Part shown: in pieces, positions 3,527-62,680 of the stretch
How the letters are laid out: each line of letters opens with the position of its first letter
How positions within the stretch are numbered: position 1 is the stretch's first letter
Source: an archaeon
GTDB lineage: Archaea; Micrarchaeota; Micrarchaeia; CAILAH01
Direction: 5' to 3'
DNA length: 64,000 nucleotides
Assembly (NCBI GenBank): GCA_024274875.1
Contig: JAJSAH010000017.1
Coordinates: 34,897-98,896 of the forward strand
Made by a program: the position numbers and the translations under genes
The notes under the pieces: model-generated
Seen by the model: the letters and a program-made list of their open reading frames with translations, nothing else
Databases searched by the model: none
What the model was told of the DNA's origin: nothing

Positions 3527-5716
3527 TTAATCCATAAAGAAGCTTGGGTTGGGGGGCTCTTCAGGCTCTCCCTTCCTCTTTCTTATCTGCCTGACAACTT
3601 TATCCTGAAGCTCTTTAGGAAGTTTCTCATACCCGTAGTATTCATAGTACCATACAGCACGACCCTGAGTGGTTCCCCTTAGAACATTAGCGAAACCGAA
3701 CATCTCCGAAACAGGAACCTTAGCATTTATGGTAACTAAATCTTCCTCCTGATCAATATTCAGTATTTGCCCTCTCTTTCCTTGAACGCTGTTAATCACG
3801 CTGCTCATATACTCCTGCGGCAGCTGCACAAACAACTTTTGCTTTGGCTCAAGCAAAGTTATGCCCGCTTGAAGCAATGCTGCATAAATGGGACGTTTTA
3901 TTGCAGGTATGATTTGCGCAGGGCCTCGGTGGACTGGATCTTCGTGTATAGATGCATCTATCACAGATACCTTAACGCCAGTAACTTTTTCCTTCGCAAG
4001 CGGACCTTGCGCCATTGCTTCTTCAAATCCCTGAATCAAGAGTTCCATAACCTCATGCATATACTGAACTCCTTTAGTCATATCGAGGAATACATTGCCG
4101 CCAAAAATATCCTTCGCGTTCTTAGCTTCATCCCTGCTCATGCCATGCTCCATCAAAAGCTCCTGCACAGTTTTTCCTCTCACTTTGCCCTCAGGTATAA
4201 GACCTTCTTCAATCGCCTTGTGCACGCTTTCCTCAAGCGGCTCAACAACAACTTGGAATTTAGAATGCTTGTTCGGCGACTTGCCTTCAATAGGCCCAAC
4301 CTTCTTAGTGATGCACTCTTTATACACAACAATCGGCGGAGAGGTCATAATAGGAATGCCTTTCTCATTCTGTATCTTTGTCTCTATGATCTCTAAATGC
4401 AAATCGCCCATGCCATACATTAAGTGCTCACCTGTATCCATATTCAATTCAACTTTAAATGTTGGGTCCTCCTTAGCAATGCCCCTCAAAACATCAATCA
4501 ACTTAACCAAATCCTTTGGATTCTTAGCTTCAATAGATTTAGTAACTACCGGCTGCGAATAATGCTTAATTTGATCAAATGGTTCTATCTCAACTTCGCT
4601 TAATGTCTCTCCAACATACAAATCCTTCAAACCAACCATTGCAACTATGTTCCCCGCAGGCACATTGTCAACATTAACCCTATCAGGACCCATATATATG
4701 CTAACCTGCTGTATTCTGCCCTTCTCCTTCTTAGATATTTGATATACTTCTACGCTTTTCTTGACAGTGCCGCTGAAAACCCTGCATATTGCAACCTCGC
4801 CTGCATGAGGATCGATTGCAACTCCAAACACAACTGCGATGAGTTTCCCATTCGGGTCGCAGTCGCGCATCCACTTGAACGCGTCAGTATCTCTCTCACC
4901 ATGCCAAATCGATCCAATCCTATACTTCTGCGCTTCAAGAGGCGTGGGCAAGTGCTTAATAACCATTTCAAGAACAACTTCATCCAACCCTGCCTTCTCA
5001 GAAAGCTCCTTATTCTTCTCCTCCTTGCAGTAGTTGTATATGTCCTTAAAATTAATATTCAACCTCTGCATAGATGAAAAACTGATTGCCCATTTGTGAA
5101 ACGCCGACCCAAACGCCACATTGCCCTTATCAACCTTTACCTGCCATGATTCCTTAAATTCTGCGGGAGCATTTTGGCTTATGAGTTTATTAACTTTCGT
5201 AATTATCTTAACCAAGCGCTCCTGCATCTGCTCAGCATCAAGCTGAAGCTCATTAATAAGCCGATCAACTTTGTTTATGAACAGCACAGGTCTTGACCTC
5301 TCTTTCATTGCCTGCCTAAGCACAGTTTCCGTTTGAGGCATTACGCCTTCAACCGCATCCACCACCAAAACAACGCCATCAACCGCGCGCATAGCTCTTG
5401 TAACATGACCGCCGAAATCAACATGGCCCGGCGTATCAATCAGATTAACCAAATAATCATTTCCCTCATAAGTGAATCCTAATGAAATGTATGCGGATTT
5501 AATCGTAATTCCTCTCTTCTGCTCAATCTCATCAAAATCCATTACTCTCTGCTCTCCAGCAAGCTCCTTGCTCATAAGACCTGCGCGAGCAACCAAGCTA
5601 TCCGTGAGCGTCGTTTTGCCATGGTCTACATGAGCCACAATAGCGATGTTGCGTATATGCTCAACATCGGACATTAATTTCTGAACCTCTGATGCCATAT
5701 ATTCTTTCCTTGCCAT
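3527..5716 (-). CDS. fusA: Translation elongation factor 2 (aEF-2)
   Basis: 729 aa with AHVDHGKTT, DTPGHVDF and NKVDR. Homology runs the full length. Sits at the operon position after S7. Confidence 0.97.
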   Translation of the reverse strand: MARKEYMASEVQKLMSDVEHIRNIAIVAHVDHGKTTLTDSLVARAGLMSKELAGEQRVMDFDEIEQKRGITIKSAYISLGFTYEGNDYLVNLIDTPGHVDFGGHVTRAMRAVDGVVLVVDAVEGVMPQTETVLRQAMKERSRPVLFINKVDRLINELQLDAEQMQERLVKIITKVNKLISQNAPAEFKESWQVKVDKGNVAFGSAFHKWAISFSSMQRLNINFKDIYNYCKEEKNKELSEKAGLDEVVLEMVIKHLPTPLEAQKYRIGSIWHGERDTDAFKWMRDCDPNGKLIAVVFGVAIDPHAGEVAICRVFSGTVKKSVEVYQISKKEKGRIQQVSIYMGPDRVNVDNVPAGNIVAMVGLKDLYVGETLSEVEIEPFDQIKHYSQPVVTKSIEAKNPKDLVKLIDVLRGIAKEDPTFKVELNMDTGEHLMYGMGDLHLEIIETKIQNEKGIPIMTSPPIVVYKECITKKVGPIEGKSPNKHSKFQVVVEPLEESVHKAIEEGLIPEGKVRGKTVQELLMEHGMSRDEAKNAKDIFGGNVFLDMTKGVQYMHEVMELLIQGFEEAMAQGPLAKEKVTGVKVSVIDASIHEDPVHRGPAQIIPAIKRPIYAALLQAGITLLEPKQKLFVQLPQEYMSSVINSVQGKRGQILNIDQEEDLVTINAKVPVSEMFGFANVLRGTTQGRAVWYYEYYGYEKLPKELQDKVVRQIRKRKGEPEEPPNPSFFMD

Positions 5717-5754
5717 ATTTACCTAACCCCTGCATAAAAGAGAAATATGAAAAA

Positions 5755-6363
5755 CTATCTTGCGCCGCGAGCAATCCTCTCTACATCATCTCTCTTCTTA
5801 ATCGCATAGCTGTTAGCATCACCCTTGCCTGCAAGAATCAACTCATCAGCCAATGCCTCCGCCATAGTCTTCTTCTTCGCAAAAGATTGCATTATCGTAG
5901 CAAGAGCAATGTTGCGCAACGCCATATCAACCCTACGAGATGCAGATACATCAACAGCAACTTGGTATGACACGCCTCCAAATTGAACCCTTGTGATATC
6001 CTCGCGAGGCGCAGAGTTTTTGACTGCATCCACTAAAACTTGTATGGGATTGGATTTTGTGCGTTTGCTGATTATATCAAAAGCATCTTCAACAATCTTG
6101 ATAGCGACTGTCTTCTTGCCCTGCAATTGACCGTGAGTTCTTATAACTTTGCCAGACAATTTTTCACCCGTGCCGCCGCGCATGAGCTTATTGACAAGCC
6201 TCTCAACAATATTCACCTTAATCTTGCTGAACTGCTTCCTCGCATGCCTGCCAAAAGAATGGGGAAAATGCACTGGCTGCACAGAAACATAATTCACCAA
6301 ACCCTTATCATTCACAGATACATCATCCCAACTATATTTGCCAAACAACTTAATATCTGCCAA
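5755..6363 (-). CDS. rps7: 30S ribosomal protein S7 (uS7)
   Basis: 202 aa. Position in the S12-S7-EF2 context and a typical archaeal S7 sequence. Confidence 0.93.
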   Translation of the reverse strand: MADIKLFGKYSWDDVSVNDKGLVNYVSVQPVHFPHSFGRHARKQFSKIKVNIVERLVNKLMRGGTGEKLSGKVIRTHGQLQGKKTVAIKIVEDAFDIISKRTKSNPIQVLVDAVKNSAPREDITRVQFGGVSYQVAVDVSASRRVDMALRNIALATIMQSFAKKKTMAEALADELILAGKGDANSYAIKKRDDVERIARGAR

Positions 6364-6368
6364 AATAT

Positions 6369-6791
6369 CTACCTCTTAGTTTTTTGCTTCTTGCCTTTTC
6401 TGAGCTCTTCTAAAGATATGCCGTTAACAGCAATGACCTTGAATCTAACACCAGAAATTGAACCCATCTGGCCTTTTTGAGAACCCCCAAGCCCAACAAC
6501 TCTCACCAAATCATGCTCATCAATTTGGCTTATAGCTTTGTCGCGAGGCACATGAGCAGTCACAACCCTGCCGTTCTTCCTCAGCTGAACCCTTACGCAT
6601 TTAATCAACCCTGAGTGCGGCTGCTTCTGCTCAATAGCGCGCTTCTCAAGAACGATGCCGTCGCCCATAGGCGCGCCTTCAAGCGCATCGTACCTTTCTC
6701 TGTGCCTCATCACGCTCAGGGATTTCTTTTTATATTTGCGCCTTTTATGCTTCTTCTTCATAAGCCTTGCAGCATATTCTCCTCTTGCCAA
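6369..6791 (-). CDS. rps12: 30S ribosomal protein S12 (uS12)
   Basis: 140 aa containing KCVRVQL.KNGR..TA.VP. Operon context supports the call. Confidence 0.95.
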   Translation of the reverse strand: MARGEYAARLMKKKHKRRKYKKKSLSVMRHRERYDALEGAPMGDGIVLEKRAIEQKQPHSGLIKCVRVQLRKNGRVVTAHVPRDKAISQIDEHDLVRVVGLGGSQKGQMGSISGVRFKVIAVNGISLEELRKGKKQKTKR

Positions 6792-6795
6792 CCAA

Positions 6796-7209
6796 TCACC
6801 TTATCTGAATCTTCATCTCCTTGCCGAAAAGTTTCTTAAAAAACTCTTTGGCAAATGTCAACACAGCGCCCCTTCTCATTGAGTATTTATCAGAGGCGTT
6901 TAATTTAACATAGATAACCTTTTTATTATTTCTTTCATGCTCCTGAGTCATAGGAGCATCCACATTCAGCGATTTTTTTATGAAATCTTCCGCAGAAGAA
7001 GTGCTCTCAAATACATACACGCTCCTGCCAATCTTTCCTCTCAACTTCTTCACATTAGATCCCGCCTTGCCTATTGACCTGCCCATCATTCCTTTGGGAA
7101 CCAAAAAAGCCACGCCGTCTTCGTTAAGCAAGCAGTAATCGGGGGATACGCCAGTTATATTGGAAAAAAGAGTCATGCAGTATATTTCATCATTGGATAA
7201 TTTATGCAC
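6796..7209 (-). CDS. nusA: Archaeal NusA-like transcription termination factor (two KH domains)
   Basis: 137 aa with GRSIGKAGSNVKKL. Conserved position between L30e and S12. Confidence 0.85.
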   Translation of the reverse strand: MHKLSNDEIYCMTLFSNITGVSPDYCLLNEDGVAFLVPKGMMGRSIGKAGSNVKKLRGKIGRSVYVFESTSSAEDFIKKSLNVDAPMTQEHERNNKKVIYVKLNASDKYSMRRGAVLTFAKEFFKKLFGKEMKIQIR

Positions 7210-12947: not shown

Positions 12948-13643
12948 CTACTCTGCAACCTTGCTCTCCCTAAGAAAGCGTATTATCTTGCCGTCATCAG
13001 CAGCAGATGTTGGGAGAGACACCTCAGTCATAAGCGCGAAATTCTTTACAAGAGAACATGAGGGGCCTTCAGGAGTCTCAGCAATGCATACCTTTCCCCA
13101 CTGAGTTCCATGGAGATCGCGCGCCTTGAAATGCGGGTGAGACCTGCTCAAAGGAGAGATTAACCTGCGCATGTGCGAGTTTGTGGAGAAGAAATTCGTG
13201 CGGTCCAACATTTGAGATACACCTGTCTGCCCTGCAATCCAGTTGCCCGTCGCAAGCGCATACCTAATCCTATCAGTGAACGCATCTGGCCGAATCGCTG
13301 TATGCGCAGAAATGCGCCTGCCCCTAGCAACACTGCGCTCCAATTGATATGTTACATCTTTAATCAAGAAATGGAATGCATACCTAAACAGCTCCTGCAT
13401 CAATTCCCCAGCAAGTTTTATACGTTTGTTCATATAATGATCCCTATCGTCCTCAACAATCTTTTTGTTCGCAACATAGATTGTTCGCTCAATCATGCCT
13501 GCTAAGTAATACGCCTTAGCTATGCGGGACTCAGGATCAGTGCCTAGGTGAGGAAGCAAGTATGTGTCCACAAGTATTTCAGCGCGCTTAAGCCTAAATT
13601 CTTTCGCTTGGCCAGGAGCTGCTTTTCTACCCACATAATCCAA
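12948..13643 (-). CDS. rpoB2: RNA polymerase subunit B'' (Rpo2N), C-terminal part, downstream of an in-frame TAA
   Basis: 231 aa with LLPHLG, ATGNW, RTNF..., HGTQWGKVC..ETPEG. It lies in the same frame as 13650..14414. The only nearby in-frame start is TTG 13643-13641, and no SD precedes it. Confidence 0.9.
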   Translation of the reverse strand: MDYVGRKAAPGQAKEFRLKRAEILVDTYLLPHLGTDPESRIAKAYYLAGMIERTIYVANKKIVEDDRDHYMNKRIKLAGELMQELFRYAFHFLIKDVTYQLERSVARGRRISAHTAIRPDAFTDRIRYALATGNWIAGQTGVSQMLDRTNFFSTNSHMRRLISPLSRSHPHFKARDLHGTQWGKVCIAETPEGPSCSLVKNFALMTEVSLPTSAADDGKIIRFLRESKVAE

Positions 13644-13649
13644 TGCATC

Positions 13650-14414
13650 TTAATAGGTTTTGCTCGCATCTATCTCCAAATTGTACAAAATTTCAGACCT
13701 TATGGCAACATCATCTGAAAACGCATTCAAAATCTCTTTGTCAGTCTTCAATCCAAGTATGCGCAAAAAGGGTATGACTGATACTGATGGGGGCGCAGCA
13801 GGAAATGACAGCTGAAGCTTGCCATCCTTTGTCCTATCTATGCTGCACCTTGCCCTAAACCCAAACCTTGTTGAAAACACTTTTGCATTCACAACGCCTT
13901 TCACTTTATCCATGCTGACTATCTTGCGGTTTGGAACCAAATCTTCTAAACTGACAAAAATCTTCTCAGTGCCATTCACAATGAAATACCCGCCCGGATC
14001 CAAGGGATCCTCGCCTAAGTCAAGCAGCTCATTCTTGCCCAAACCATTAAGATGGCAGGGTTTGGATTTAACCATTATGGGCAACTGCCCTATAAAAACT
14101 TCTTCCATATCCCTCTCTATGCCATTAATGGTTGGAAAAATTTCAAGGAAGATGGGAGATGAGTAGGTTAAGTTCCTCATCCTCGCTTCCATAGGAGTGA
14201 TGGATCTTCTTGAGCCATCTGCCTCCTGAACTGTTGGCGGTTCAATGCGCACATTCCCAAGCTTGAACGAATAACCCTCTATGCCTGGTTCGATCACATC
14301 TATGGAACGAACAACCTCACGCATGCCATGCTCGACAAAGCGGTTGAATGAATCAATGTGCTGCTTCGCAGGAGGATTTGACTTAAGATATATAGACATA
14401 AGCTCTTTCTTCAT
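13650..14414 (-). CDS. rpoB2: RNA polymerase subunit B'' (Rpo2N), N-terminal part, ending at an in-frame TAA (13652-13650)
   Basis: 254 aa with QHIDSFN, RNLTYS, GQLPIMVKS and DPGGYFIVNGTEK. Together with the downstream part it totals 486 codons, the normal B'' length. Confidence 0.9.
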   Translation of the reverse strand: MKKELMSIYLKSNPPAKQHIDSFNRFVEHGMREVVRSIDVIEPGIEGYSFKLGNVRIEPPTVQEADGSRRSITPMEARMRNLTYSSPIFLEIFPTINGIERDMEEVFIGQLPIMVKSKPCHLNGLGKNELLDLGEDPLDPGGYFIVNGTEKIFVSLEDLVPNRKIVSMDKVKGVVNAKVFSTRFGFRARCSIDRTKDGKLQLSFPAAPPSVSVIPFLRILGLKTDKEILNAFSDDVAIRSEILYNLEIDASKTY

Positions 14415-17832: not shown

Positions 17833-17949
17833 TGCCAACGGCCATAGGGAAGGGGAAACGCCTGTTCCCATTCCGAACACAGAAGCTAAGCCCTTCCACG
17901 GTGTTGCTGGTACTGCCCTTCGGGCGGGAAGGCGCACTGCTGTTGGCAC
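17833..17949 (+). rRNA. rrf: 5S ribosomal RNA, not linked to 16S/23S within this window
   Basis: Contains GCCAACGGCCATAGGG...CCCATTCCGAACACAGAAGCTAAGCCC...GTTGGCA. The terminal helix closes as GCCAAC/GTTGGC. Confidence 0.9.
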
Positions 17950-17968: not shown

Positions 17969-19075
17969 TTATTGATTGCGCGCATGAACATGCTGCATAA
18001 GCGGTTTATAAAAGGAGAGTATGTTGTCGGAAATACCTAATAATTGCTTAAATTGCCTATTGTAGATGCAATTATGCATCAGAAGGAGATCTGATTGAAC
18101 CTCAAATGCATACTCATCCTTCGTCCTAATGAGTTGATCTGCAAAATAGAACGGCTTATTTACTTGCATGTATTGAACAACAGCATTAAGATTTTGAAGC
18201 ACTTCTGCTCTGCGCGATTCAACAGCATTCTTGTATGTATTCCTAAGCAGATTGACAATGTATCTCTTATTTTTCCTTCGTTTGATCTTCCTGCCTAAAC
18301 TGCATAATTCTGCCAAAAAACGCGAATCATTATCTGAATACATGCGAACCAGTTTCTTTATGCCCATTATATCCGAGCAATCCGCTAAGTATGCATTTAA
18401 AACGGCATATCTGCTCCTCGATTCGAATGCGCGATAAAGTCGAACAATAGAAAGGTAAATATATTCGTCCCTTAAATATCGCGCATGCATCTCCCTCTCC
18501 AAAGCATACCTTATCTTGCCAGAGAACATCTCTTGCCGAGCAGTGAATCTCCTAATTGATGCTAAAACAATTGATATAGCTGGGTTTAGTTTTGAATAAT
18601 AGTCAAACTTTGATGCAGAAGACTTTGCTTTTTCAAGTTTTGAGATGGCATGCAACAATTTCTCATGAGCGATAATTTTGTGCAAAGTTGCTGCATTAGA
18701 TACAGAATCAGCAACGCCCCTTATAATAATAAGCGCTTCGCGGATATCATTTTGCTGCATTAAATCTGCGGCACGCTGCAAATCACGAATGCACTTCAAT
18801 AAGAGAAGATTGTCATCCTCCAAACTTTTGCGCATGTGCTTAAACATGCGAACAGACTTAAACACATCTATATCGAGGGTAATCTTTTTTTGTGGGGGTT
18901 GCCTGCCGTTCAAATAATACCTATTAAGAGTAGATAGGTCCATCCTTTTGAGCATCTTAGCTGATTCGCGCTTCAACCCTACTCTTAAAAAACCCCGCCT
19001 CCTTGCCGGCCGAATCTTAAGATCACGCTGTCTGTTGCGCATAATCAATGCGCCATATTCACTTACCAAAAACAT
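17969..19075 (-). CDS. Hypothetical protein (all-alpha, basic)
   Basis: 368-aa ORF. No motif recognised. Confidence 0.45.
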   Translation of the reverse strand: MFLVSEYGALIMRNRQRDLKIRPARRRGFLRVGLKRESAKMLKRMDLSTLNRYYLNGRQPPQKKITLDIDVFKSVRMFKHMRKSLEDDNLLLLKCIRDLQRAADLMQQNDIREALIIIRGVADSVSNAATLHKIIAHEKLLHAISKLEKAKSSASKFDYYSKLNPAISIVLASIRRFTARQEMFSGKIRYALEREMHARYLRDEYIYLSIVRLYRAFESRSRYAVLNAYLADCSDIMGIKKLVRMYSDNDSRFLAELCSLGRKIKRRKNKRYIVNLLRNTYKNAVESRRAEVLQNLNAVVQYMQVNKPFYFADQLIRTKDEYAFEVQSDLLLMHNCIYNRQFKQLLGISDNILSFYKPLMQHVHARNQ

Positions 19076-19097
19076 GTGAATTATTCAAGAGAGATGG

Positions 19098-19167
19098 TTA
19101 ATAAAATTTTCTGTGCATTACGCTGCTTAATGCATTCCTCTCTTTCTCATGACCTTCCTCAGCTGGA
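19098..19167 (-). pseudogene. Orphan 3'-terminal fragment of a nitroreductase gene, displaced by the AbiE insertion
   Basis: The minus strand reads PAEEGHEKERNALSSVMHRKFY*. The C-terminus of the intact gene at 20586.. reads PAEEGHEKNRMSLNQVLHNEEF*. Confidence 0.65.
19144..19167. repeat. Direct repeat, left copy: ttctcatgaccttcctcagctgga
   Basis: Exact 24/24 match to 20632-20655. Confidence 0.9.
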
Positions 19168-19240
19168 CGTTAAACATAAAACATAATTATTTAAATATTG
19201 TCACCATATTTTAACATATTTGTTAAAAAATAGTGATGTT

Positions 19241-19813
19241 ATGAGATTGGTTGATATGTTTAACAGAATCAAATCATCAGGAAAGTTGGTTTATGGAATA
19301 AATGAACTGAGCAATCTCCTAGGCATCAGAAAAAATGTGCTAAGCATATATGTGAACAGAATGTGCAAACAAGGGCTTGCAAACAGAATCGGTAGGAAAA
19401 TTGTGTTCACGGACAATGATTTTGTAATCGCTTCACAACTCATAGAGCCATCTTATATATCAATTCACAGCGCCTTATACTTGCACAAAGTAATACAACA
19501 AATACCGCAAAAAATCGAATCTGTCAATCCTGCAAACACCTTCAAAATAGATGGATATATATACTATAAAATCAATCCAAAACTATTCTTTGGATATGAA
19601 AAAAAGAGGTTTGCTGAAAGTTATGTGTTTTTGGCAACTCCCGAGAAAGCGGTTTTGGACGGAATTTATCTCTCAAAGATACCTCTAAACATATTGCCGG
19701 AAATAATTGAATACTTAGACAAAAGAGTTCTAAAAAAAACTGCTGAACGGATGAAAAAAACCTCTGTTAGAGGCACAAAAAAAACTTATAAAATCATAGA
19801 GAAGTGGTTATGA
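19241..19813 (+). CDS. abiEi: AbiEi-like antitoxin / transcriptional regulator (type IV TA)
   Basis: About 190 aa, sitting immediately upstream of and overlapping an AbiEii-family gene. The N-terminal region looks like a winged helix. The ORF track starts at TTG 19220. Confidence 0.65.
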   Translation: MRLVDMFNRIKSSGKLVYGINELSNLLGIRKNVLSIYVNRMCKQGLANRIGRKIVFTDNDFVIASQLIEPSYISIHSALYLHKVIQQIPQKIESVNPANTFKIDGYIYYKINPKLFFGYEKKRFAESYVFLATPEKAVLDGIYLSKIPLNILPEIIEYLDKRVLKKTAERMKKTSVRGTKKTYKIIEKWL

Positions 19814-20568
19814 TGCTAACGCGTGATGAACTAATAAGCATTGCAAAACAGTTCGGCAACAAACCATGGCAACAGGAAAAACATTATGTGCAGAGCGCTG
19901 TAATTTACTCCATTGCAGACCTCCCTTTAGTTTTCAAAGGGGGCACATATCTTTGGTTCTTCCATGGACTGCCAAGGTTCTCAGAAGATTTGGATTTTAC
20001 TTCTACCGGTAAGATCTCACTGAAGACCATCGCTGAAAAAGTTAGAAGAGGATTGGGCATGTTCGGAATGCATTCAGAAATCAGTCAATCAAAAACAAAA
20101 GAGAAAAAAAATTCAATGATATTGAGAATCGATGCAAAAGGGCCATTATACGCTAATCATTTATCAAAAACATTCGTCTACATAGAAATTAGCAGAAGAG
20201 AAAAATTGCTGCTCAAACCGATAAATCTGATTCTGAGAATGGATTATTACATGATTCCGCAGAAAGCTGTGTTGGGCATGAACTTATCTGAAGTTGCCGC
20301 AGAGAAAGTCAGAGCAATTTTAACAAGAGATAAGGCAAGAGATGTCTATGACCTGCATTTTCTGGTTAAATATAAGGGCATTAAGTTTGATCCAGACCTT
20401 GTTAATGCAAAACTCTCATATTACGGGTTAAAATATGATAAGAAAAAGTTCATATCTAAATTGAATAAGATTGAAGAATATTATGCTGATGAATTGTCAG
20501 TGCTAACAAACAATCCCATCCCTGATTTCAGCAAGGTAAAGGGTTTGCTGGCTGAATGGGTTGGTTAA
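19810..20568 (+). CDS. abiEii: Nucleotidyltransferase AbiEii/AbiGii-family toxin (DUF1814)
   Basis: Contains EKHYVQ...LVFKGGTYL...RFSEDLDFT, characteristic of AbiEii. The ATGA overlaps the abiEi stop. Confidence 0.82.
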   Translation: MMLTRDELISIAKQFGNKPWQQEKHYVQSAVIYSIADLPLVFKGGTYLWFFHGLPRFSEDLDFTSTGKISLKTIAEKVRRGLGMFGMHSEISQSKTKEKKNSMILRIDAKGPLYANHLSKTFVYIEISRREKLLLKPINLILRMDYYMIPQKAVLGMNLSEVAAEKVRAILTRDKARDVYDLHFLVKYKGIKFDPDLVNAKLSYYGLKYDKKKFISKLNKIEEYYADELSVLTNNPIPDFSKVKGLLAEWVG

Positions 20569-20585
20569 GCGATGCATACAAATAA

Positions 20586-21365
20586 TCAAAACTCTTCATT
20601 ATGCAAAACTTGATTTAAACTCATCCTATTCTTCTCATGACCTTCCTCAGCTGGATACCCTAACGGAAGAACTGCAACTGGCTCGACATAATCCGGCAAT
20701 TTCAGGATTTCTTTAAGCGCGCCGTTATTGAAAGCGCCCACCCAAACGCTTCCTAAACCCCTATCAGCAGCAGCTAACTGAATGTATGCAGAAACTATGC
20801 ATGCATCTGCAACTGCATAGAATTCCTCGCCTCTTTTACCATATTTTGAACCACTCTTCTTTCTGTTAGCGCATACAACAATAACAATTGGAGCTTCCAT
20901 AATAAAATCTTGTTCAAAACATGCGCTTGCAATCTTTTTCTTCCTTTCCGCATTCTTTACCAAAATAAATTCCCATGCCTGCAAATTGCCTGCGCTGGGC
21001 GCTAATATCGAAGTTGAAAGAATATCATTGATAACAGCATCAGAAACATCATCTGGTTTATACGCCCTTATGCTTCTCCTTTTCAGCGCAAGGTCTTTGA
21101 ATGCGCTCTTAAGTGCAATTATTTGATAGCCATATTTATCAACATCATCTTTGGGCCAAAAAGCAATATCCTTGGTCTTTGCCACATAAGTTATTTCTTT
21201 CTCAATAACTCTTCCTGTATATTTCTTTGTTTCAGGATCCCATTCGCGCAAAATTAAAACATCTACTGGCTTGCATTCAAAATCTGCTAACCTAATCTCA
21301 AATGTCTTATCTCCAGAAACAACCTTATCAAAATATTTTGGCCAGATCTTTTTTTCGATTTTCAT
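20586..21365 (-). CDS. Fusion protein: N-terminal DUF3850/ASCH-like domain plus C-terminal nitroreductase domain
   Basis: The N-terminus KIWPKYFDKVVSGDKTFEIRLADF...LREWD...YTGR follows the DUF3850 pattern. The C-terminus RRSIRAY...APSAGNLQAW.F follows the nitroreductase pattern. Confidence 0.78.
   Translation of the reverse strand: MKIEKKIWPKYFDKVVSGDKTFEIRLADFECKPVDVLILREWDPETKKYTGRVIEKEITYVAKTKDIAFWPKDDVDKYGYQIIALKSAFKDLALKRRSIRAYKPDDVSDAVINDILSTSILAPSAGNLQAWEFILVKNAERKKKIASACFEQDFIMEAPIVIVVCANRKKSGSKYGKRGEEFYAVADACIVSAYIQLAAADRGLGSVWVGAFNNGALKEILKLPDYVEPVAVLPLGYPAEEGHEKNRMSLNQVLHNEEF
20632..20655. repeat. Direct repeat, right copy: ttctcatgaccttcctcagctgga
   Basis: Exact match to 19144-19167. 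It lies inside the 3' end of the nitroreductase CDS. Confidence 0.9.
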
Positions 21366-21396
21366 AATTTATATTTATGCGCGATCTTATAAAAAT

Positions 21397-22356
21397 ATGG
21401 AATTGAGAAATAAAACAACTGTTGCAATAAAACCAAAACCTCCTTACAATTTCGATGCTAACTTTCATAAGCCGTCGCATTTCCCGTCATCAGATAACTG
21501 CTGGGAAAAAGGAAAATACTGGATAACTATGGTTTGGAAAGGCAGAGTGTTAGGGTTGAAGTTTGAAAATATGGGGACAATAGGAAAACCTGAAATTAGA
21601 GCAAGCATATACTCAAAGAAAAAATTATCAAAAAAATTTGTTGATGAATTGGTTGAAGAAATTAGGTGGAGGTTTAATTTTGATTCAGATATTTCTGGGT
21701 TTCATAAAAAGTTCGGGAAGAGTGGGCTCTTGGGAAAATTTATAAGAAAATGGAAAGGCATGAAGCCAGTGGCAGCCAATTCTCTGTATGAAACATTAGT
21801 GATATACATAGTTCTTCAAAACGCAACCGTTAGAAGATCAGTGCAAATGCTTGAAAACTTGTTTAAACGGTTCGGAAAGAAAGTAAAATTTGACCGGAAA
21901 ATTATGTCTGCATTCTGGGAGCCGGAAGAGATTGCAAAAGCTGATGAGCAGGAGTTAAGGGATTTGAAGGTTGGGTACAGGGCTAAATTTCTTAAAAGGA
22001 TCTCTGAGCAGTTGGCAAATAATGAAATAGATGAGTTTGCGCTTAGGAAAATGGCAAAGGAAGATGTTAAAAAAGAGATGTTAAAATTATATGGGATTGG
22101 GCCTGCATCAATTGAATACCTGCTTTTTGAGGATTTTTATTTTTATGATGCGCTGGAAACAATACCGCCCTGGGAACAGAAAATATTGTCAAGGTTGATA
22201 TTCAATAGGAAAACAGTTCCTGCTGAAAAAATACTGAAATTTTTTATGAAATTTAAACCATACCAAAAATTAGCATTCCATTATGTTTGGGAAGATTTGT
22301 TCTGGAGAAGGAAGCATCAGCATATTGAATGGCTGGAAAAGGAGATAAGGTTATGA
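21397..22356 (+). CDS. HhH-GPD superfamily DNA glycosylase (AlkA-like)
   Basis: Contains PPYNFDANF at the N-terminus and the helix-hairpin-helix LKLYGIGPASIEYLL. ATG 21397 is preferred over the longer track ORF, which overlaps the divergent gene. Confidence 0.72.
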   Translation: MELRNKTTVAIKPKPPYNFDANFHKPSHFPSSDNCWEKGKYWITMVWKGRVLGLKFENMGTIGKPEIRASIYSKKKLSKKFVDELVEEIRWRFNFDSDISGFHKKFGKSGLLGKFIRKWKGMKPVAANSLYETLVIYIVLQNATVRRSVQMLENLFKRFGKKVKFDRKIMSAFWEPEEIAKADEQELRDLKVGYRAKFLKRISEQLANNEIDEFALRKMAKEDVKKEMLKLYGIGPASIEYLLFEDFYFYDALETIPPWEQKILSRLIFNRKTVPAEKILKFFMKFKPYQKLAFHYVWEDLFWRRKHQHIEWLEKEIRL

Positions 22357-23142
22357 TTCTTCATGATATGCGCATAAAACAATATCCGCGCTTCCATTTG
22401 AAACCTTTATGCCCCTAAAATACTTGCAAACAGAAACATTCTTTACGGCGCATTTGTGCTCATTAGATTTTTCAGCTATATTCCAAGGGCACCTGTCCTG
22501 CTTCCAGCTTATTTTGTTTTCAGATGTTGTTAAATCTATATCCATGTTCGCCCCTTTCAATTCTATTATTTTTTCGTTTTTCTCACCAAGCAAAGACCTA
22601 ACTTTTTTAAGGATTAAATCAAATCTGCAATATCCTGCTTTCTCATTAAAATGGCCTGCATTCTTAACAAGAATTAAATCAACCCCTAAATTATTTGCAA
22701 GATGTTATGCTTTCTCTAAAGGAACATAGGGATCATTATCGGAGTGATACACATAAAATTTCTTACAATTTTGTCTTATCTTAGACCAATCAAAGTTCGG
22801 TTTAATGAAAGATTTATTGATGTTATCAAAATCAGGATTTTCCAGCAGGTCTATAAATCCTGAAACAAAGAAAGCTGCCTTGATTGGTTTGTTCTGCATT
22901 TCAAGAATGTTTAGCAAAAATGCAACTCCTAAACTATGACCAATAATAATAGAATTTTCGTTCAGATATTGTTCATAACCCTTAAAAATTTTGAGCCAAT
23001 TTTGAAGTGATTGATTTGCAGGAGTTGGAAATTTTGGAACAAAAACTCTGCAACCCAATCTTTCAAGCTCGCATTTGAGCCAGGGAAACCAATTTTCACC
23101 AGGATTTCCATACGCACCATGAATAATGAAAATGTTGGGCAT
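22351..23142 (-). pseudogene. RBBP9/YdeN-type serine hydrolase interrupted by an in-frame TAA (22707-22705). The frame stays open into a C-terminal Cys-rich extension.
   Basis: The catalytic Ser (GHSLG) and Asp (SDNDPYVP) come before the stop. The catalytic His (NAGHFN) comes after it, in the same frame (own translation of 22594-22704). There is no in-frame ATG, GTG or TTG before the His. Confidence 0.7.
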
Positions 23143-23192
23143 GGCAGAATATTGCTTGGCAAAATATTTAAGCATAATAGAGAAACAAAATC

Positions 23193-23397
23193 ATGCAACC
23201 AAAAACCATCAAGTTGAATAGAAAATATATCAAACAAATTGCCAAAGTTGATTCAATAAGGATTTGGAAAGATTTGTTTATACACAAACAAAAGAAATAA
23301 GAAAGCGAAATTCTATGAAAAACTTGGATACAAATTAATCAATGAATTCCCTAATTATTATAGTTATGATAAAGAGTGCAGGACAGTTGTTTTATAG
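23193..23397 (+). pseudogene. GNAT acetyltransferase relic, with an internal deletion and a frameshift
   Basis: Frame 0 reads MQPKTIKLNRKYIKQIAKVDSIRIWKDLFIHKQKK*. Frame +1 reads ...KKAKFYEKLGYKLINEFPNYYSYDKECRTVVL*, a typical GNAT C-terminus. The acetyl-CoA-binding core is missing. Confidence 0.55.
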
Positions 23398-23462
23398 GTA
23401 AATGAGATAATTTGCAAGCATTGATCGAAAACTATTTATTCCAACCCCACCTAAAATGCAAA

Positions 23463-23936
23463 ATGCACATACTCAAAAAAATTACACCAAAAAGAAAAGC
23501 TTTAACTAATGAATTCAAAAACTACCTCATAGATTCGGCGGCAGGCACATCATTCTTCACGCCCATATATACGTTTAATGAATTAGTTATTGCTGGAATG
23601 CCGTTAGATGTATGCCTCAAAAGCAGGCTTATGGCAGCAGGGTTCGGGCTTGTCATAAACAGACCTTACGGAATGTTCAGGAATTGGTGGGCTGCGAAAT
23701 GGAAGCTTACCACTCAAAGCTCATTCACAAAAAAATACGCTGTCGAAACTGCTGGCCTTGCAATGTTCCAGGTGCCCATAAGTTCATTCATGTACTATGT
23801 TTCAGGCGCTTCATTAACAGAAGCGCTAATTGCAATACCAAGCGCGCTTGCGTTGGGCGTTATGCTAGGCAGGCCTTTCGGAATATGGATGGATGCAGTT
23901 AGAAAACTCTCCGGTGTAGAGCCAGCAATAAAATAA
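23463..23936 (+). CDS. alaE: AlaE-family L-alanine exporter-like membrane protein
   Basis: 157 aa. RPYGMFRNWW and GRPFGIWMDAVRKLSGV parallel E. coli AlaE WPYGMYRDLF and GAVYGYFLDYCRRLFKV (recalled from memory). Confidence 0.65.
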   Translation: MHILKKITPKRKALTNEFKNYLIDSAAGTSFFTPIYTFNELVIAGMPLDVCLKSRLMAAGFGLVINRPYGMFRNWWAAKWKLTTQSSFTKKYAVETAGLAMFQVPISSFMYYVSGASLTEALIAIPSALALGVMLGRPFGIWMDAVRKLSGVEPAIK

Positions 23937-23965
23937 AAATTTATCCTTCTTAAATGAACTTATAT

Positions 23966-24130
23966 AGCCCCGTCGTCTAGTGGTCAAGGATGGCAGGCTC
24001 TGGACGAATGGCCCCCAGCGCGGCCCTTCGCAACCCACGGCAACCAGCCCTTATGGGGAAACCTGCAGACTGCGGTTCGAAAGAAGGGCGCCGTGCCCTT
24101 AATGAAAAACCGGAAATCCGCACGGGGCTA
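23966..24130 (+). tRNA. tRNA-Gln (anticodon CUG) with two introns: 24004-24060 (canonical 37/38, 57 nt) and 24082-24116 (T-loop 59/60, 35 nt)
   Basis: Hand fold: acceptor AGCCCCG/CGGGGCT, D-arm GTCT-AGTGGTCAA-GGAT, anticodon arm GCAGG-CTCTGG|A-CCTGC, T-arm TGCGG-TTCGAA|T-CCGCA. Discriminator is A. Confidence 0.85.
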
Positions 24131-24132
24131 TG

Positions 24133-49137: not shown

Positions 49138-50082
49138 TTATTCCTTAAGTATAATTTCGCTGGCCCTCTTGGCAAGCATGACTTGATCAACAACTTCTTT
49201 AAGAGAATCATACCCTTTCTCATTTATTACATCTATGGCGCTTATGCCGTCTCCATCTTTTTTGCGAGGGTCTGCGCCGTGCAATATTAAGAAATTTGCT
49301 ATCTCTATCCTGCCTCTAAGCAAGGCAAACAGTAATGGAGTTCTTCCTTCAATATTTGAAACATTCACATCTGCATTGTTTAGCACAAGAAACTTAACAA
49401 TATGCAAATGATTCTTCCAACAAGCATACATCAACGCAGTATCGCCATACTGGTTTGCATAATTCAAATCAGCGCCTCTTTTTGCAAGAACCTCAACAGC
49501 CCCGCCGCTGCCTTCCCAACATGCAGCCATGAGCGGTGTGGAACGCGTGCTATTCTCTAAATCAAGGATTGCGCCATTATCCAAAAGCAGATGAATTAAT
49601 GGCGTATCATTAGCTATGCATGAGATATGAAGCGGCGTATTTCCTTCTAAATTGGCCAGATTAACATCTGCATGCGCGCTAACCAAAATTTCAGCTGCCT
49701 CATAATGCCTGTTCTCGCACGCAACATGAAGCGCAGCATTTCCCATAATATTTTGATGGTTCACATCTGCATCATGGTTAACAAGAACGCGAACTATCCT
49801 CGCAAACCCTCTGCTGCTCGATTCAATCAGCGGAGTGTTTTTGTATGAATTCATCGTGTCAACATCAGCGCCTCTGAGAATGCTCTGCACAACTCTTTCA
49901 TAATTCCCATATACTGCGCTCATGTGCAATTGTTCATTAACGACCCTTTTATCCTCGCTTTTAGACATAATTCTCGATTTTATCTCATCACCATGCATCT
50001 TAGAAAAATCGTGCTCTGCAACTGGCTGCTTTTTCTTTTTAGTGAGCACAATTATTGCGCCTTTGCCAGATTTCTCTTTCAT
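49138..50082 (-). CDS. Ankyrin-repeat protein (about 7 repeats)
   Basis: Reiterated G.T.L..A......iv..Ll..gAdvN units throughout. Confidence 0.85.
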   Translation of the reverse strand: MKEKSGKGAIIVLTKKKKQPVAEHDFSKMHGDEIKSRIMSKSEDKRVVNEQLHMSAVYGNYERVVQSILRGADVDTMNSYKNTPLIESSSRGFARIVRVLVNHDADVNHQNIMGNAALHVACENRHYEAAEILVSAHADVNLANLEGNTPLHISCIANDTPLIHLLLDNGAILDLENSTRSTPLMAACWEGSGGAVEVLAKRGADLNYANQYGDTALMYACWKNHLHIVKFLVLNNADVNVSNIEGRTPLLFALLRGRIEIANFLILHGADPRKKDGDGISAIDVINEKGYDSLKEVVDQVMLAKRASEIILKE

Positions 50083-61862: not shown

Positions 61863-62133
61863 GCGAGCGGTTGGCGGCAGCTAACGGCGCCGCATTTTTG
61901 CGTGCGCTGAGGAAGGTCCGCCCACGCAGAGCTGAAACTTCCGTAAAGGAAGGGAAGGGAACAGAAACGAAACTGCCTTTGCCATACGGGATGAAGTTAT
62001 TCTGACATCGGCAATGGTTAGGTGAAACGGCCCTTCCGGATGCTGTGAGCGTGCAAGCCTTTGCGGCGCTTAGATTAATGCTGCGGGAACAAATTCCCTA
62101 AAAAAACAGAAGGCGGCCTATGCCAGCCGCTCT
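61863..62133 (+). ncRNA. rnpB: RNase P RNA (archaeal type A-like, about 270 nt)
   Basis: P1 pairs GAGCGGTTGGC (61865-75) with GCCAGCCGCTC (62122-32). CR-I is GAGGAAGGTCCGCCC, CR-V is ACAGAAGGCGGCCTA, and GGTGAAACGGC is internal. Confidence 0.8.
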
Positions 62134-62680
62134 AATAACCCATGCTGATTTCCCAAGAAGTCAAACCTCCAGCAGAACGAAGGATAGCAATGCCTTCCTT
62201 CCAACCATGATCTATTGCATAGTCAAGCGCAGTTTTTCCGTGCAAATCAACCAAATTTACATCCGCACCGCGGTCTATTAACAACTCTAAAGCATTTTTG
62301 CTGCGATACAGCACCGTGAATATGAGAGCTGTCCTCCCATAAAGATCTTTAAGATCTTTATCAGCGCCGCGGTCTAATAACAGGCGAACCATATTGACAT
62401 CATCTCCAACCACTGCGTGAGAAAGCATCGTTCCTCCTAAATCAAATATGCCATCTGCGTTTGCACCCCTAATTATGCAACGCCTCGCTTTATTCAAATC
62501 GCCTCTGCGTATGGCATTTAGAAGCTCCTTATTCAGCTCATAGATCTGTTCGCTAGAGAGGTCTCTTTCAAACTTAATTACTCTGAACTGCGAGGCATCC
62601 CTATCGCGAACAGTTCGGTCTCTTTTCGCAGCCCTCCTGCATCTGCTAAACGGAATTATTTTACCCATAAGCATATTCAA
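62132..62680 (-). CDS. Ankyrin-repeat protein (about 4 repeats)
   Basis: Contains GGTMLSHAVVGDDVNMVRLLLDRGADKD, GRTALIFTV... and GKTALDYAIDHG. Confidence 0.8.
   Translation of the reverse strand: MNMLMGKIIPFSRCRRAAKRDRTVRDRDASQFRVIKFERDLSSEQIYELNKELLNAIRRGDLNKARRCIIRGANADGIFDLGGTMLSHAVVGDDVNMVRLLLDRGADKDLKDLYGRTALIFTVLYRSKNALELLIDRGADVNLVDLHGKTALDYAIDHGWKEGIAILRSAGGLTSWEISMGY

Follow-up and report, generated by a model that had tools for sequence, protein, structure and literature searches.

Classic bacterial examples of integration at a gene end are found in icd, where both e14 and phage 21 integrate. Toxin-antitoxin (TA) cassettes occur in chromosomal integrons, including archaeal integrons. 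In addition, cis-mobilizable elements (CIMEs) of Streptococcus thermophilus, which are without an integrase, are bounded by attachment (att) sites and lie at the 3' end of fda, were reportedly described by Pavlovic and co-workers in 2004. Krupovic et al. (2019; PMC6563490) have reported archaeal integrated elements that target protein genes in their 3'-distal part; 14 of 68 thaumarchaeal elements integrate in such regions, with att sites of 8 to 69 bp. Nobusato et al. (2000) and Furuta et al. (2010; PMC2853133) have reported the insertion of restriction-modification (RM) modules with long target duplication. The cases of this kind are bacterial, concern RM genes and have repeats >30 bp, and no archaeal case survived the screen (PMC2853133). 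The present analysis concerns a 64-kb window on one assembled contig (JAJSAH010000017.1) of a Micrarchaeota-like archaeal chromosome, in which an AbiEi/AbiEii TA cassette lies between two exact copies of a 24-nt sequence at the 3' end of a nitroreductase gene. The cassette is minimal, contains no recombinase gene, and was probably inserted Campbell-style as a circle that carried its own copy of a nitroreductase end.

Two nitroreductase ends and an exact 24-nt repeat

The sequence TTCTCATGACCTTCCTCAGCTGGA is present exactly twice in the window, the copies being 1,488 bp apart (Table 1). No further copy was found in the window even at 3 mismatches, none is expected by chance (0 in 100 shuffles), and a repeat search extended the pair to 32 nt at 91% identity. 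The 24-mer is thus not dispersed in the window, which removes one objection that the first-pass annotation of this DNA had raised against its own proposal, namely a widespread repeat unrelated to insertion. On the minus strand, the right copy is in frame in the 259-aa nitroreductase gene, where it encodes ..PAEEGHEK.. followed by NRMSLNQVLHNEEF, so that the gene terminates in ..LPLGYPAEEGHEK-NRMSLNQVLHNEEF. The left copy reads R-PAEEGHEK-ERNALSSVMHRKFY*, and a stop codon sits one codon upstream of its core. The stop of this orphan end (19098-19100) lies 22 nt ahead of the ATG (19075) of the next gene, which encodes a 368-aa protein. The region of recombination corresponds to the last 23 codons of the nitroreductase gene. 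The pair of 24-mers, the in-frame position of the right one near the nitroreductase C-terminus, the diverged orphan C-terminus after the left one and the 22-bp gap to the next gene had all been claimed in the first-pass annotation, and every one of them was recovered as described.

On sequence grounds the orphan tail is a genuine nitroreductase C-terminus. The family has the C-terminal pattern R..L..V.H.E.[FWY]*, which both tails match with their stops at one and the same position; the orphan retains the R, L, V and H as well as the stop position. When a position matrix built from the tails of 90 nitroreductase homologues was applied to the six-frame translation of the window, the orphan ranked second among 2,489 stop-terminated 14-mers, with only the real tail scoring higher (21.6, a value typical of real tails).

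Alignment of the two copies shows no similarity 5' of the core, complete identity in the core (24/24) and about 22 identities in the following 46 nt (48%), a contrast between core and tail with a Fisher p value of 6e-6. Among the three relatives described below, the core is 17-20/24 nt identical (71-83%, hand count), so conservation alone fails to explain the perfect match. The contrast between core and tail therefore indicates that two different alleles were joined at the only long block in which they were identical. Uniform decay of a duplication would not produce it, because an orphan free of selection would change in the core as it does in the tail.

Two other origins of the paired ends have to be weighed against this contrast. 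A tandem duplication of the nitroreductase, with the downstream copy mostly lost and AbiE between the copies by chance, would also give two homologous gene ends in the same orientation. An exact 24-nt block beside a 48%-identical tail is unlike decay, however; in addition, the homology ends abruptly at the core, one codon past a stop codon, and no relative carries two copies, and this origin is therefore given next to no credence. If insertion with long target duplication is taken strictly, a staggered break would duplicate about 70 nt over the stop codon and the copies would diverge later. Such insertion is known for recombinase-less RM modules in bacteria, with repeats that often lie over start or stop codons (PMC2853133), and the 70-nt unit of the window does span a stop codon. 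It is nevertheless improbable here. The divergence is 0/24 in the core and about 24/46 in the tail, whereas an unselected orphan should have mutated in the core too, and published repeats hardly differ between their copies, as in cases with 417/423 and 388/397 identical positions.

Empty site in related genomes

The order nitroreductase, 5S rRNA (on the opposite strand), DUF7121, PolB, Rpb5 and RpoB is kept in three related contigs (L001, L002 and L056), with the 5S rRNA gene at the same position in each. The closest of them, L056 (Logan ERR14788039), has PolB 78% and DUF7121 79% identical to those of the window, the corresponding values for L001 and L002 being about 56-61%; by these proteins L056 is a sister lineage of the window organism. 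In L056 a 363-aa homologue (P0242) of the 368-aa protein comes 41 bp after the nitroreductase, and 8 bp further on are the 5S rRNA gene, DUF7121 and PolB. This is the empty site that the first-pass annotation had predicted, in which the nitroreductase leads directly to the 368-aa gene. No AbiE gene and no second nitroreductase end were found at the locus in L056, L001 or L002. The distance at which the empty site is seen is that of a genus or family (PolB 78% or lower); the collections reached contained no relative above 78% in PolB, and the window's own proteins are not indexed in the collections searched.

In both the window and L056 the 368-aa gene lies between the nitroreductase and the 5S rRNA gene; L001 and L002 lack it. 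Its family is sparse, with 27 relatives found by full HMMER search and none by word-index search, and its motifs include AVRxxKHIRExYE and NKPFYIAxQLEKTxDxY. An AlphaFold model made with the alignment has a small beta domain followed by long helices (pLDDT 95). No match to the protein was found in Pfam, PDB sequences, PDB folds, PHROGs or NCBIfam. The possibility that this gene is a hidden integrase or a part of the insert was rejected; with a syntenic homologue in L056 and no domain or fold match, it is taken as native flank.

The AbiE cassette

The 1,464 nt between the repeats consist of a leader, AbiEi, AbiEii and a trailer, with nothing else of any size and no pseudogene debris. The two TA genes are thus the sole genes there and no integrase accompanies them, as the first-pass annotation had stated. 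Leader, genes and the 17-nt trailer together form a unit of 1,418 nt. AbiEi gives a weak match to the NCBIfam model TAA_AbiEi and only sub-threshold winged helix-turn-helix matches in Pfam, in which no AbiEi model is matched. The AbiEii ATG overlaps the AbiEi stop by 4 nt (ATGA), and the PADLOC AbiEii match spans residues 1-250 of 251 aa. Readable AbiEii motifs include GGT..RFSEDLDF, EKVRAILTR and RDVYDL, and the nucleotidyltransferase motifs GG..., DLD, K..R and D..D are intact and invariant in the alignment of homologues. Two hallmarks of an AbiE system are thus present, an AbiEii/DUF1814-family toxin and AbiEi immediately upstream in the same operon. Of the further AbiE traits (toxicity, neutralisation, autoregulation at inverted repeats and phage defence), the sequence shows a conserved palindrome upstream of AbiEi. 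The leader contains the palindrome TTTTAACA-TATT-TGTTAAAA at 19209-19228, and homologous palindromes (TATAACAATATAGTTATA) occur upstream of AbiEi in three other contigs (L057, L060 and L066), which suggests that the element is probably the AbiEi operator. A lone GTTAAAC heptamer adjoins the left repeat.

The insert is compositionally foreign. Its GC content is 34.6%, compared with 41.7 +/- 2.8% for the genes of the window, and AbiEi has the second lowest GC of 55. The closest AbiEii homologue is 52% identical, and the nearest proteins come from Micrarchaeia/Micrarchaeota. Both comparisons, of cassette with flank GC and of AbiEii with its nearest relatives, had been proposed in the first-pass annotation as checks on an insertion.

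Table 1. Features of the nitroreductase-AbiE locus (window coordinates; aa, amino acids).
Feature	Position	Strand	Evidence or description
5S rRNA gene	17834..17948	+	Rfam RF00001, 71.7 bits; synteny anchor
Native downstream flank, 368-aa protein	17969..19075	-	Uncharacterised family; homologue P0242 at same position in L056
Spacer, orphan stop to next gene start	19076..19097	.	22 nt; L056 equivalent 41 nt
Orphan displaced nitroreductase 3' end	19098..19143	-	14 codons (ERNALSSVMHRKFY) + TAA
Left copy of 24-nt repeat, attR-like core	19144..19167	-	Gene homology ends abruptly on 5' side
Cassette leader	19168..19240	+	73 nt, AT-rich, TATA-like stretch
AbiEi antitoxin / winged-helix regulator	19241..19813	+	PADLOC AbiEi 3.1e-24
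AbiEii toxin, DUF1814 nucleotidyltransferase	19810..20568	+	Pfam PF08843 2e-26; PADLOC AbiEii 1e-63
Spacer, convergent AbiEii and nitroreductase stops	20569..20585	.	17 nt
Replacement 3' end from insert	20586..20631	-	Third base of K codon, 14 codons (NRMSLNQVLHNEEF), TGA
Right copy of 24-nt repeat, attL-like core	20632..20655	-	In frame: codons P-A-E-E-G-H-E + two bases of K
Target gene, DUF3850/ASCH-nitroreductase fusion, 259 aa	20586..21365	-	Nitroreductase 3.6e-32, DUF3850 1.4e-18, ASCH 2.6e-6 (Pfam)

Searches for a recombinase and for a parent element

No integrase, transposase or resolvase was found among the approximately 55 open reading frames (ORFs) of the window with Pfam, or among the Pfam-negative ORFs with PHROGs and NCBIfam. 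Searches of plasmids, phages and IMG/VR with AbiEii returned relatives of <=34% identity only and no DPANN element with an integrase, and no integrase-bearing parent element sharing the att core was found in the collections searched. The first-pass annotation had suggested looking for the 24-mer next to integrases; no further copy was found in the window, in JGI metagenome contigs or in viral contigs. The locus has direct repeats at both ends of the insert, one of them in the target gene, and an empty site in relatives, as integrative elements do, and lacks a recombinase gene inside the element. It resembles CIMEs in being bounded by att-like sites and devoid of recombination and transfer genes.

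Several more specific structures were considered and rejected. A split integrase of the SSV type across the att site does not fit, the stop being one codon upstream of the left core and no ORF crossing the reconstituted attP. Tandem integrations with an older third tail by the 5S rRNA gene were also rejected, the similarity of the C-terminus of the 368-aa gene being at chance level (about 36% nt identity by hand). An integron cassette was rejected in view of the lack of an attC imperfect palindrome, of an inverted repeat in the trailer and of IntI. A transposon or casposon was rejected as well, there being no terminal inverted repeats at the inner ends and no transposase; a transposon target-site duplication is unfit because the insert brings a homologous gene end.

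AbiE cassettes in other neighbourhoods

The surroundings of related AbiEii genes (44-52% identical) were examined in DPANN contigs, eight distinct neighbourhoods in all, and the same two-gene AbiE unit was found amid unrelated housekeeping genes in all of them. In one, the Micrarchaeota genome GCA_028866715.1 (contig JAGWHO010000002.1; L057 here), the AbiE cassette at 5441-6780 lies between 52-nt direct repeats at 5307-5358 and 6810-6861, which are 47/52 identical with an exact central block of 22 nt. The repeat spacing is 1,503 nt in L057 and 1,488 nt in the window, and the unit inside the repeats is 1,450 nt and 1,418 nt, respectively. The L057 repeat occurs at two places only within its locus. 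It covers a divergent intergenic region, taking in the first 8 nt of an 85-aa gene on one side and stopping just short of the start of an M50 peptidase gene on the other. Its sequence is unrelated to the 24-mer of the window and derives from the local target. The right-hand part of this architecture recurs in an independent run (L058). In its degree of identity the L057 repeat resembles a long target duplication; it would qualify as one by the definition of Furuta et al. (2010), namely a unit of <20 kb without mobility genes flanked by a near-identical duplication >30 bp. The window's unit has the size and lacks the mobility genes but does not have such a duplication.

The first-pass annotation had considered that the cassette might be the minimal remnant of a larger element. 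Under this explanation a provirus, plasmid or element like an integrative and conjugative element (ICE) would have integrated at the 24-nt att core through an integrase of its own and would later have been deleted down to its addiction module, as in a CIME. The attL/attR layout with a replaced gene end is canonical for such elements, TA modules resist loss and could be the last part to survive, and no integrase is present. This explanation is disfavoured and appears unlikely. The unit is tight, without debris, every nucleotide between the repeats belonging to leader, operon or trailer. A cassette of near-equal size recurs in L057 with unrelated repeats, which would require two equally clean and independent decays, and related AbiE modules stand alone amid housekeeping genes in 8 of 8 contexts. 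The units of the window and of L057 are thus difficult to account for by the decay of two elements or by one integrase with two clients, and would fit a mechanism that uses homology carried by the cassette.

The same comparison bears on the possibility of an assembly artefact, in which the assembler threaded a molecule with the same 24-mer, small and circular or else foreign, into the path of the chromosome. A 24-nt repeat is near small k-mer sizes, a single contig is at hand, and no other record of the exact sequences was found. An artefact is still very unlikely, since two joins at the same 24-mer are needed and the threaded molecule would have to carry the core and a nitroreductase tail beside AbiE; such a molecule would be the excised form of the cassette, and the biology would be unchanged. 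In addition, L057 has the same architecture in an independent NCBI genome, with its right-hand part seen again in L058.

Other repeats were noted around AbiE genes. In L072, a palindromic repeat (GAGATGTGCCCGGCGCACATCTT and variants) is dispersed at 841-863, 2310-2332, 3792-3814 and about 4340-4390; two copies lie 1,482 nt apart around the AbiE cassette and mimic a target duplication, and this repeat was not counted as one. A 12-nt repeat in L060 was at chance level. A 42-nt direct repeat (90% identical) surrounds a glycosyltransferase-2 gene beside an AbiE cassette in L004 (2149-2190 and 3140-3181; also L003, 5595-5636 and 6586-6627), and its upstream copy is an orphan gene end, EKNYTIKKIYK* compared with KKTYTIRKIYK*, that is, a displaced 3' end in a DPANN-like contig. 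In L099 (1916-1963 and 3496-3543; also L097 and L098; all IMG/VR contigs), a 48-nt imperfect direct repeat lies around a bacterial-type AbiE operon (28% identical); it consists of the operon's own promoter and ribosome-binding region, repeated 3' of AbiEii.

Mode of insertion

The events that would account for the locus are as follows. A self-contained AbiEi/AbiEii cassette of about 1.42 kb would have reached the chromosome as a circle made up of core, tail 1, trailer, AbiE and leader, and would thereby have brought its own 70-nt copy of a nitroreductase gene end. One reciprocal crossover within the 24-nt stretch identical in circle and chromosome would then have produced a Campbell-type insertion, with the order gene body, core, insert-borne tail, AbiE, core, original tail (now the orphan) and next gene. 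The nitroreductase would have been kept intact, the cassette replacing the 14 codons that it displaced. Topology requires that the insert brought the tail on the side of the gene body and that the resident tail is the one on the side of the 368-aa gene. The divergence of the orphan tail would predate the insertion, because the orphan's core is unchanged. After insertion, the TA pair could persist by addiction, by phage defence or by both. The circular intermediate, the joining catalyst and an active operon are proposed here from the arrangement of the locus.

The joining would have been done in trans, since the cassette encodes no recombinase, either by host homologous recombination on the short carried homology (insertion-duplication) or by an integrase. 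The minimal length for efficient homologous recombination in Escherichia coli is about 23-27 bp, and the exact blocks of 24 nt in the window and 22 nt in L057 are close to it. Both blocks are also of a length seen among archaeal att sites (PMC6563490). Two clean units of equal size with different, locus-derived repeats give, in a small sample, a slight lean to homologous recombination by the cell's own enzymes, which is a tentative choice at less than even confidence. Joining by a helper integrase, or by a site-specific integrase since lost, with the 24-mer as att core, is possible but rather doubtful. The first-pass annotation had read the locus as site-specific integration into the 3' end of a protein gene. 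Insertion, a replacement of the last 14 codons and an old end left behind all stand, whereas "site-specific" is not established, a single homologous crossover giving the same architecture.

Several observations weigh against the proposed insertion of a recombinase-free circle. The evidence base is a single assembled contig. The search for recombinases was limited to the visible 64 kb of the genome, and an integrase elsewhere is possible. The exact 24-mer had 0 matches in JGI metagenome contigs, and a degenerate PAEEGHEK pattern had 0 in viral contigs and 24 in genome_contigs, all of them bacterial and by chance. No circular form, strain-level empty site or second core copy was found in the collections searched. 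Among the eight AbiE contexts, a flanking repeat is absent in five and is the dispersed palindrome in L072. The orphan's matrix score is under those of all 90 real tails, with tails of the Micrarchaeal clade next lowest. The nucleotide identity to the L056 tail is about 69% for the insert-borne tail and 40% for the orphan (hand count), and the amino-acid matches to P0003 are 7/14 and 5/14, respectively. The insert tail is thus more native-looking than the orphan, which is unexpected if the orphan is the recent native end; as to which of the two is native, 14 codons are too few to settle it. Either the lineage had an unusual tail or the history is more complex. In addition, the nitroreductase is equidistant (55-62%) across four genomes. 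In PolB and DUF7121, by contrast, the window groups with L056, and a single event is therefore too simple a history for the locus.

Genomic setting of the locus

The window is core archaeal chromosome, which encodes RNA polymerase subunits, ribosomal proteins S7 and S12, EF-2, PolB, RadA, Hjc, Cdc6 and ribonucleotide reductase, and the proteins most similar to its own come from Micrarchaeia/Micrarchaeota. Its RNA genes are RNase P RNA and one lone 5S rRNA gene, isolated and distant from any 16S or 23S gene; no tRNA gene was found in the 64 kb with ARAGORN. The closest homologues of the nitroreductase are 60-62% identical and belong to Micrarchaeia, and no relative above 44% identity was found in JGI metagenomes. 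The N-terminal DUF3850/ASCH fusion (residues 1-85) is absent from the 120 best nitroreductase homologues.

Low GC extends across the entire 19.1-23.2 kb block of the window, and the genes at 21.4-24.1 kb are missing from L056. With the sole DUF3850 fusion, the low GC and the absence of these genes from L056, the locus is a hot spot of gene flux, and its structure may have arisen from more than one exchange. The low-GC block at 21366-24132 (an HhH-GPD glycosylase, an 80-aa ORF, a serine hydrolase and an AlaE exporter) forms a second variable segment that directly adjoins the AbiE insert; it separates the nitroreductase from a 462-aa gene, the two being only 229 bp apart in L056. The DUF3850 domain and the serine hydrolase gene each contain one arm of a perfect 17-nt inverted repeat (21222-21238 and 22857-22873), with the glycosylase gene between the arms.

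Elsewhere in the window, an in-frame TAA at 13650-13652 on the minus strand falls in RNA polymerase subunit B, towards its N-terminus (..SKTY*DALDYVG..), giving ORFs of 254 aa (13650-14414) and 231 aa (12948-13643) in place of the single 488-aa protein of L001. A sequencing error, a true split or recoding of the stop could explain it. The window also has genes for two ankyrin-repeat proteins, at 49138-50082 and 62132-62680.

Significance and comparison with known systems

How small TA and defence modules reach many unrelated sites without visible mobility genes is an open question, and mobile elements of Micrarchaeota and other DPANN archaea are hardly known. The locus keeps an unusually clean record, with both junctions, both alleles of the gene end and the empty site of a relative. 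If host recombination acted on carried homology, defence cassettes could spread between related genomes without dedicated machinery, and "insertion with long target duplication" would gain a concrete mechanism open to test. Had a helper integrase acted instead, the 24-mer would be a handle to find the first integrative elements of these archaea. A broader conjecture, which may well fail, is that DPANN archaea harbour a class of mobile cassettes free of recombinases, made up of AbiE modules and possibly of further addiction or defence modules. Each would carry a 50-70-nt copy of its insertion site, re-insert at the orthologous site of a new genome by one crossover in a perfect block of about 22-24 nt and rebuild a gene end or promoter. 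If true, such cassettes would be an archaeal TA counterpart of the as yet unexplained long target duplication of bacterial RM modules, and mosaic repeats the first direct trace of the process.

The kinds of structure seen here are known, namely gene-3'-end integration, integrase-less att-bounded elements and long target duplication. What is novel is a 1.49-kb TA-only unit with mosaic repeats, found in a DPANN archaeon and accompanied by a second case at a different locus. Like the archaeal 3'-end elements, the insert has direct repeats, targets the last codons, supplies a substitute end that leaves the gene functional and has an empty site in a relative, and its 24 nt are within their att range; those elements are several kb or longer and carry an integrase or casposase, whereas the present insert has 1.49 kb and a TA operon only. 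The integron cassettes share with it a small, promoter-bearing TA operon without its own recombinase; here, in contrast, there is no attC hairpin, array or IntI, and the opposite strand of the trailer codes for a gene end. CIMEs are likewise att-bounded, without an integrase and at the 3' end of a housekeeping protein gene, but they are deletion derivatives of identifiable ICEs that share their att sites and have an integrase; no such parent was found here, and the unit is much smaller and tighter. Insertions with long target duplication also bring an addiction or defence module without a mobility gene, with long target-derived repeats that span a stop (window) or starts (L057) and with neighbours that survive. 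Their published copies are nearly identical, whereas here a perfect 24 nt is followed by 46 nt of about 48% identity.

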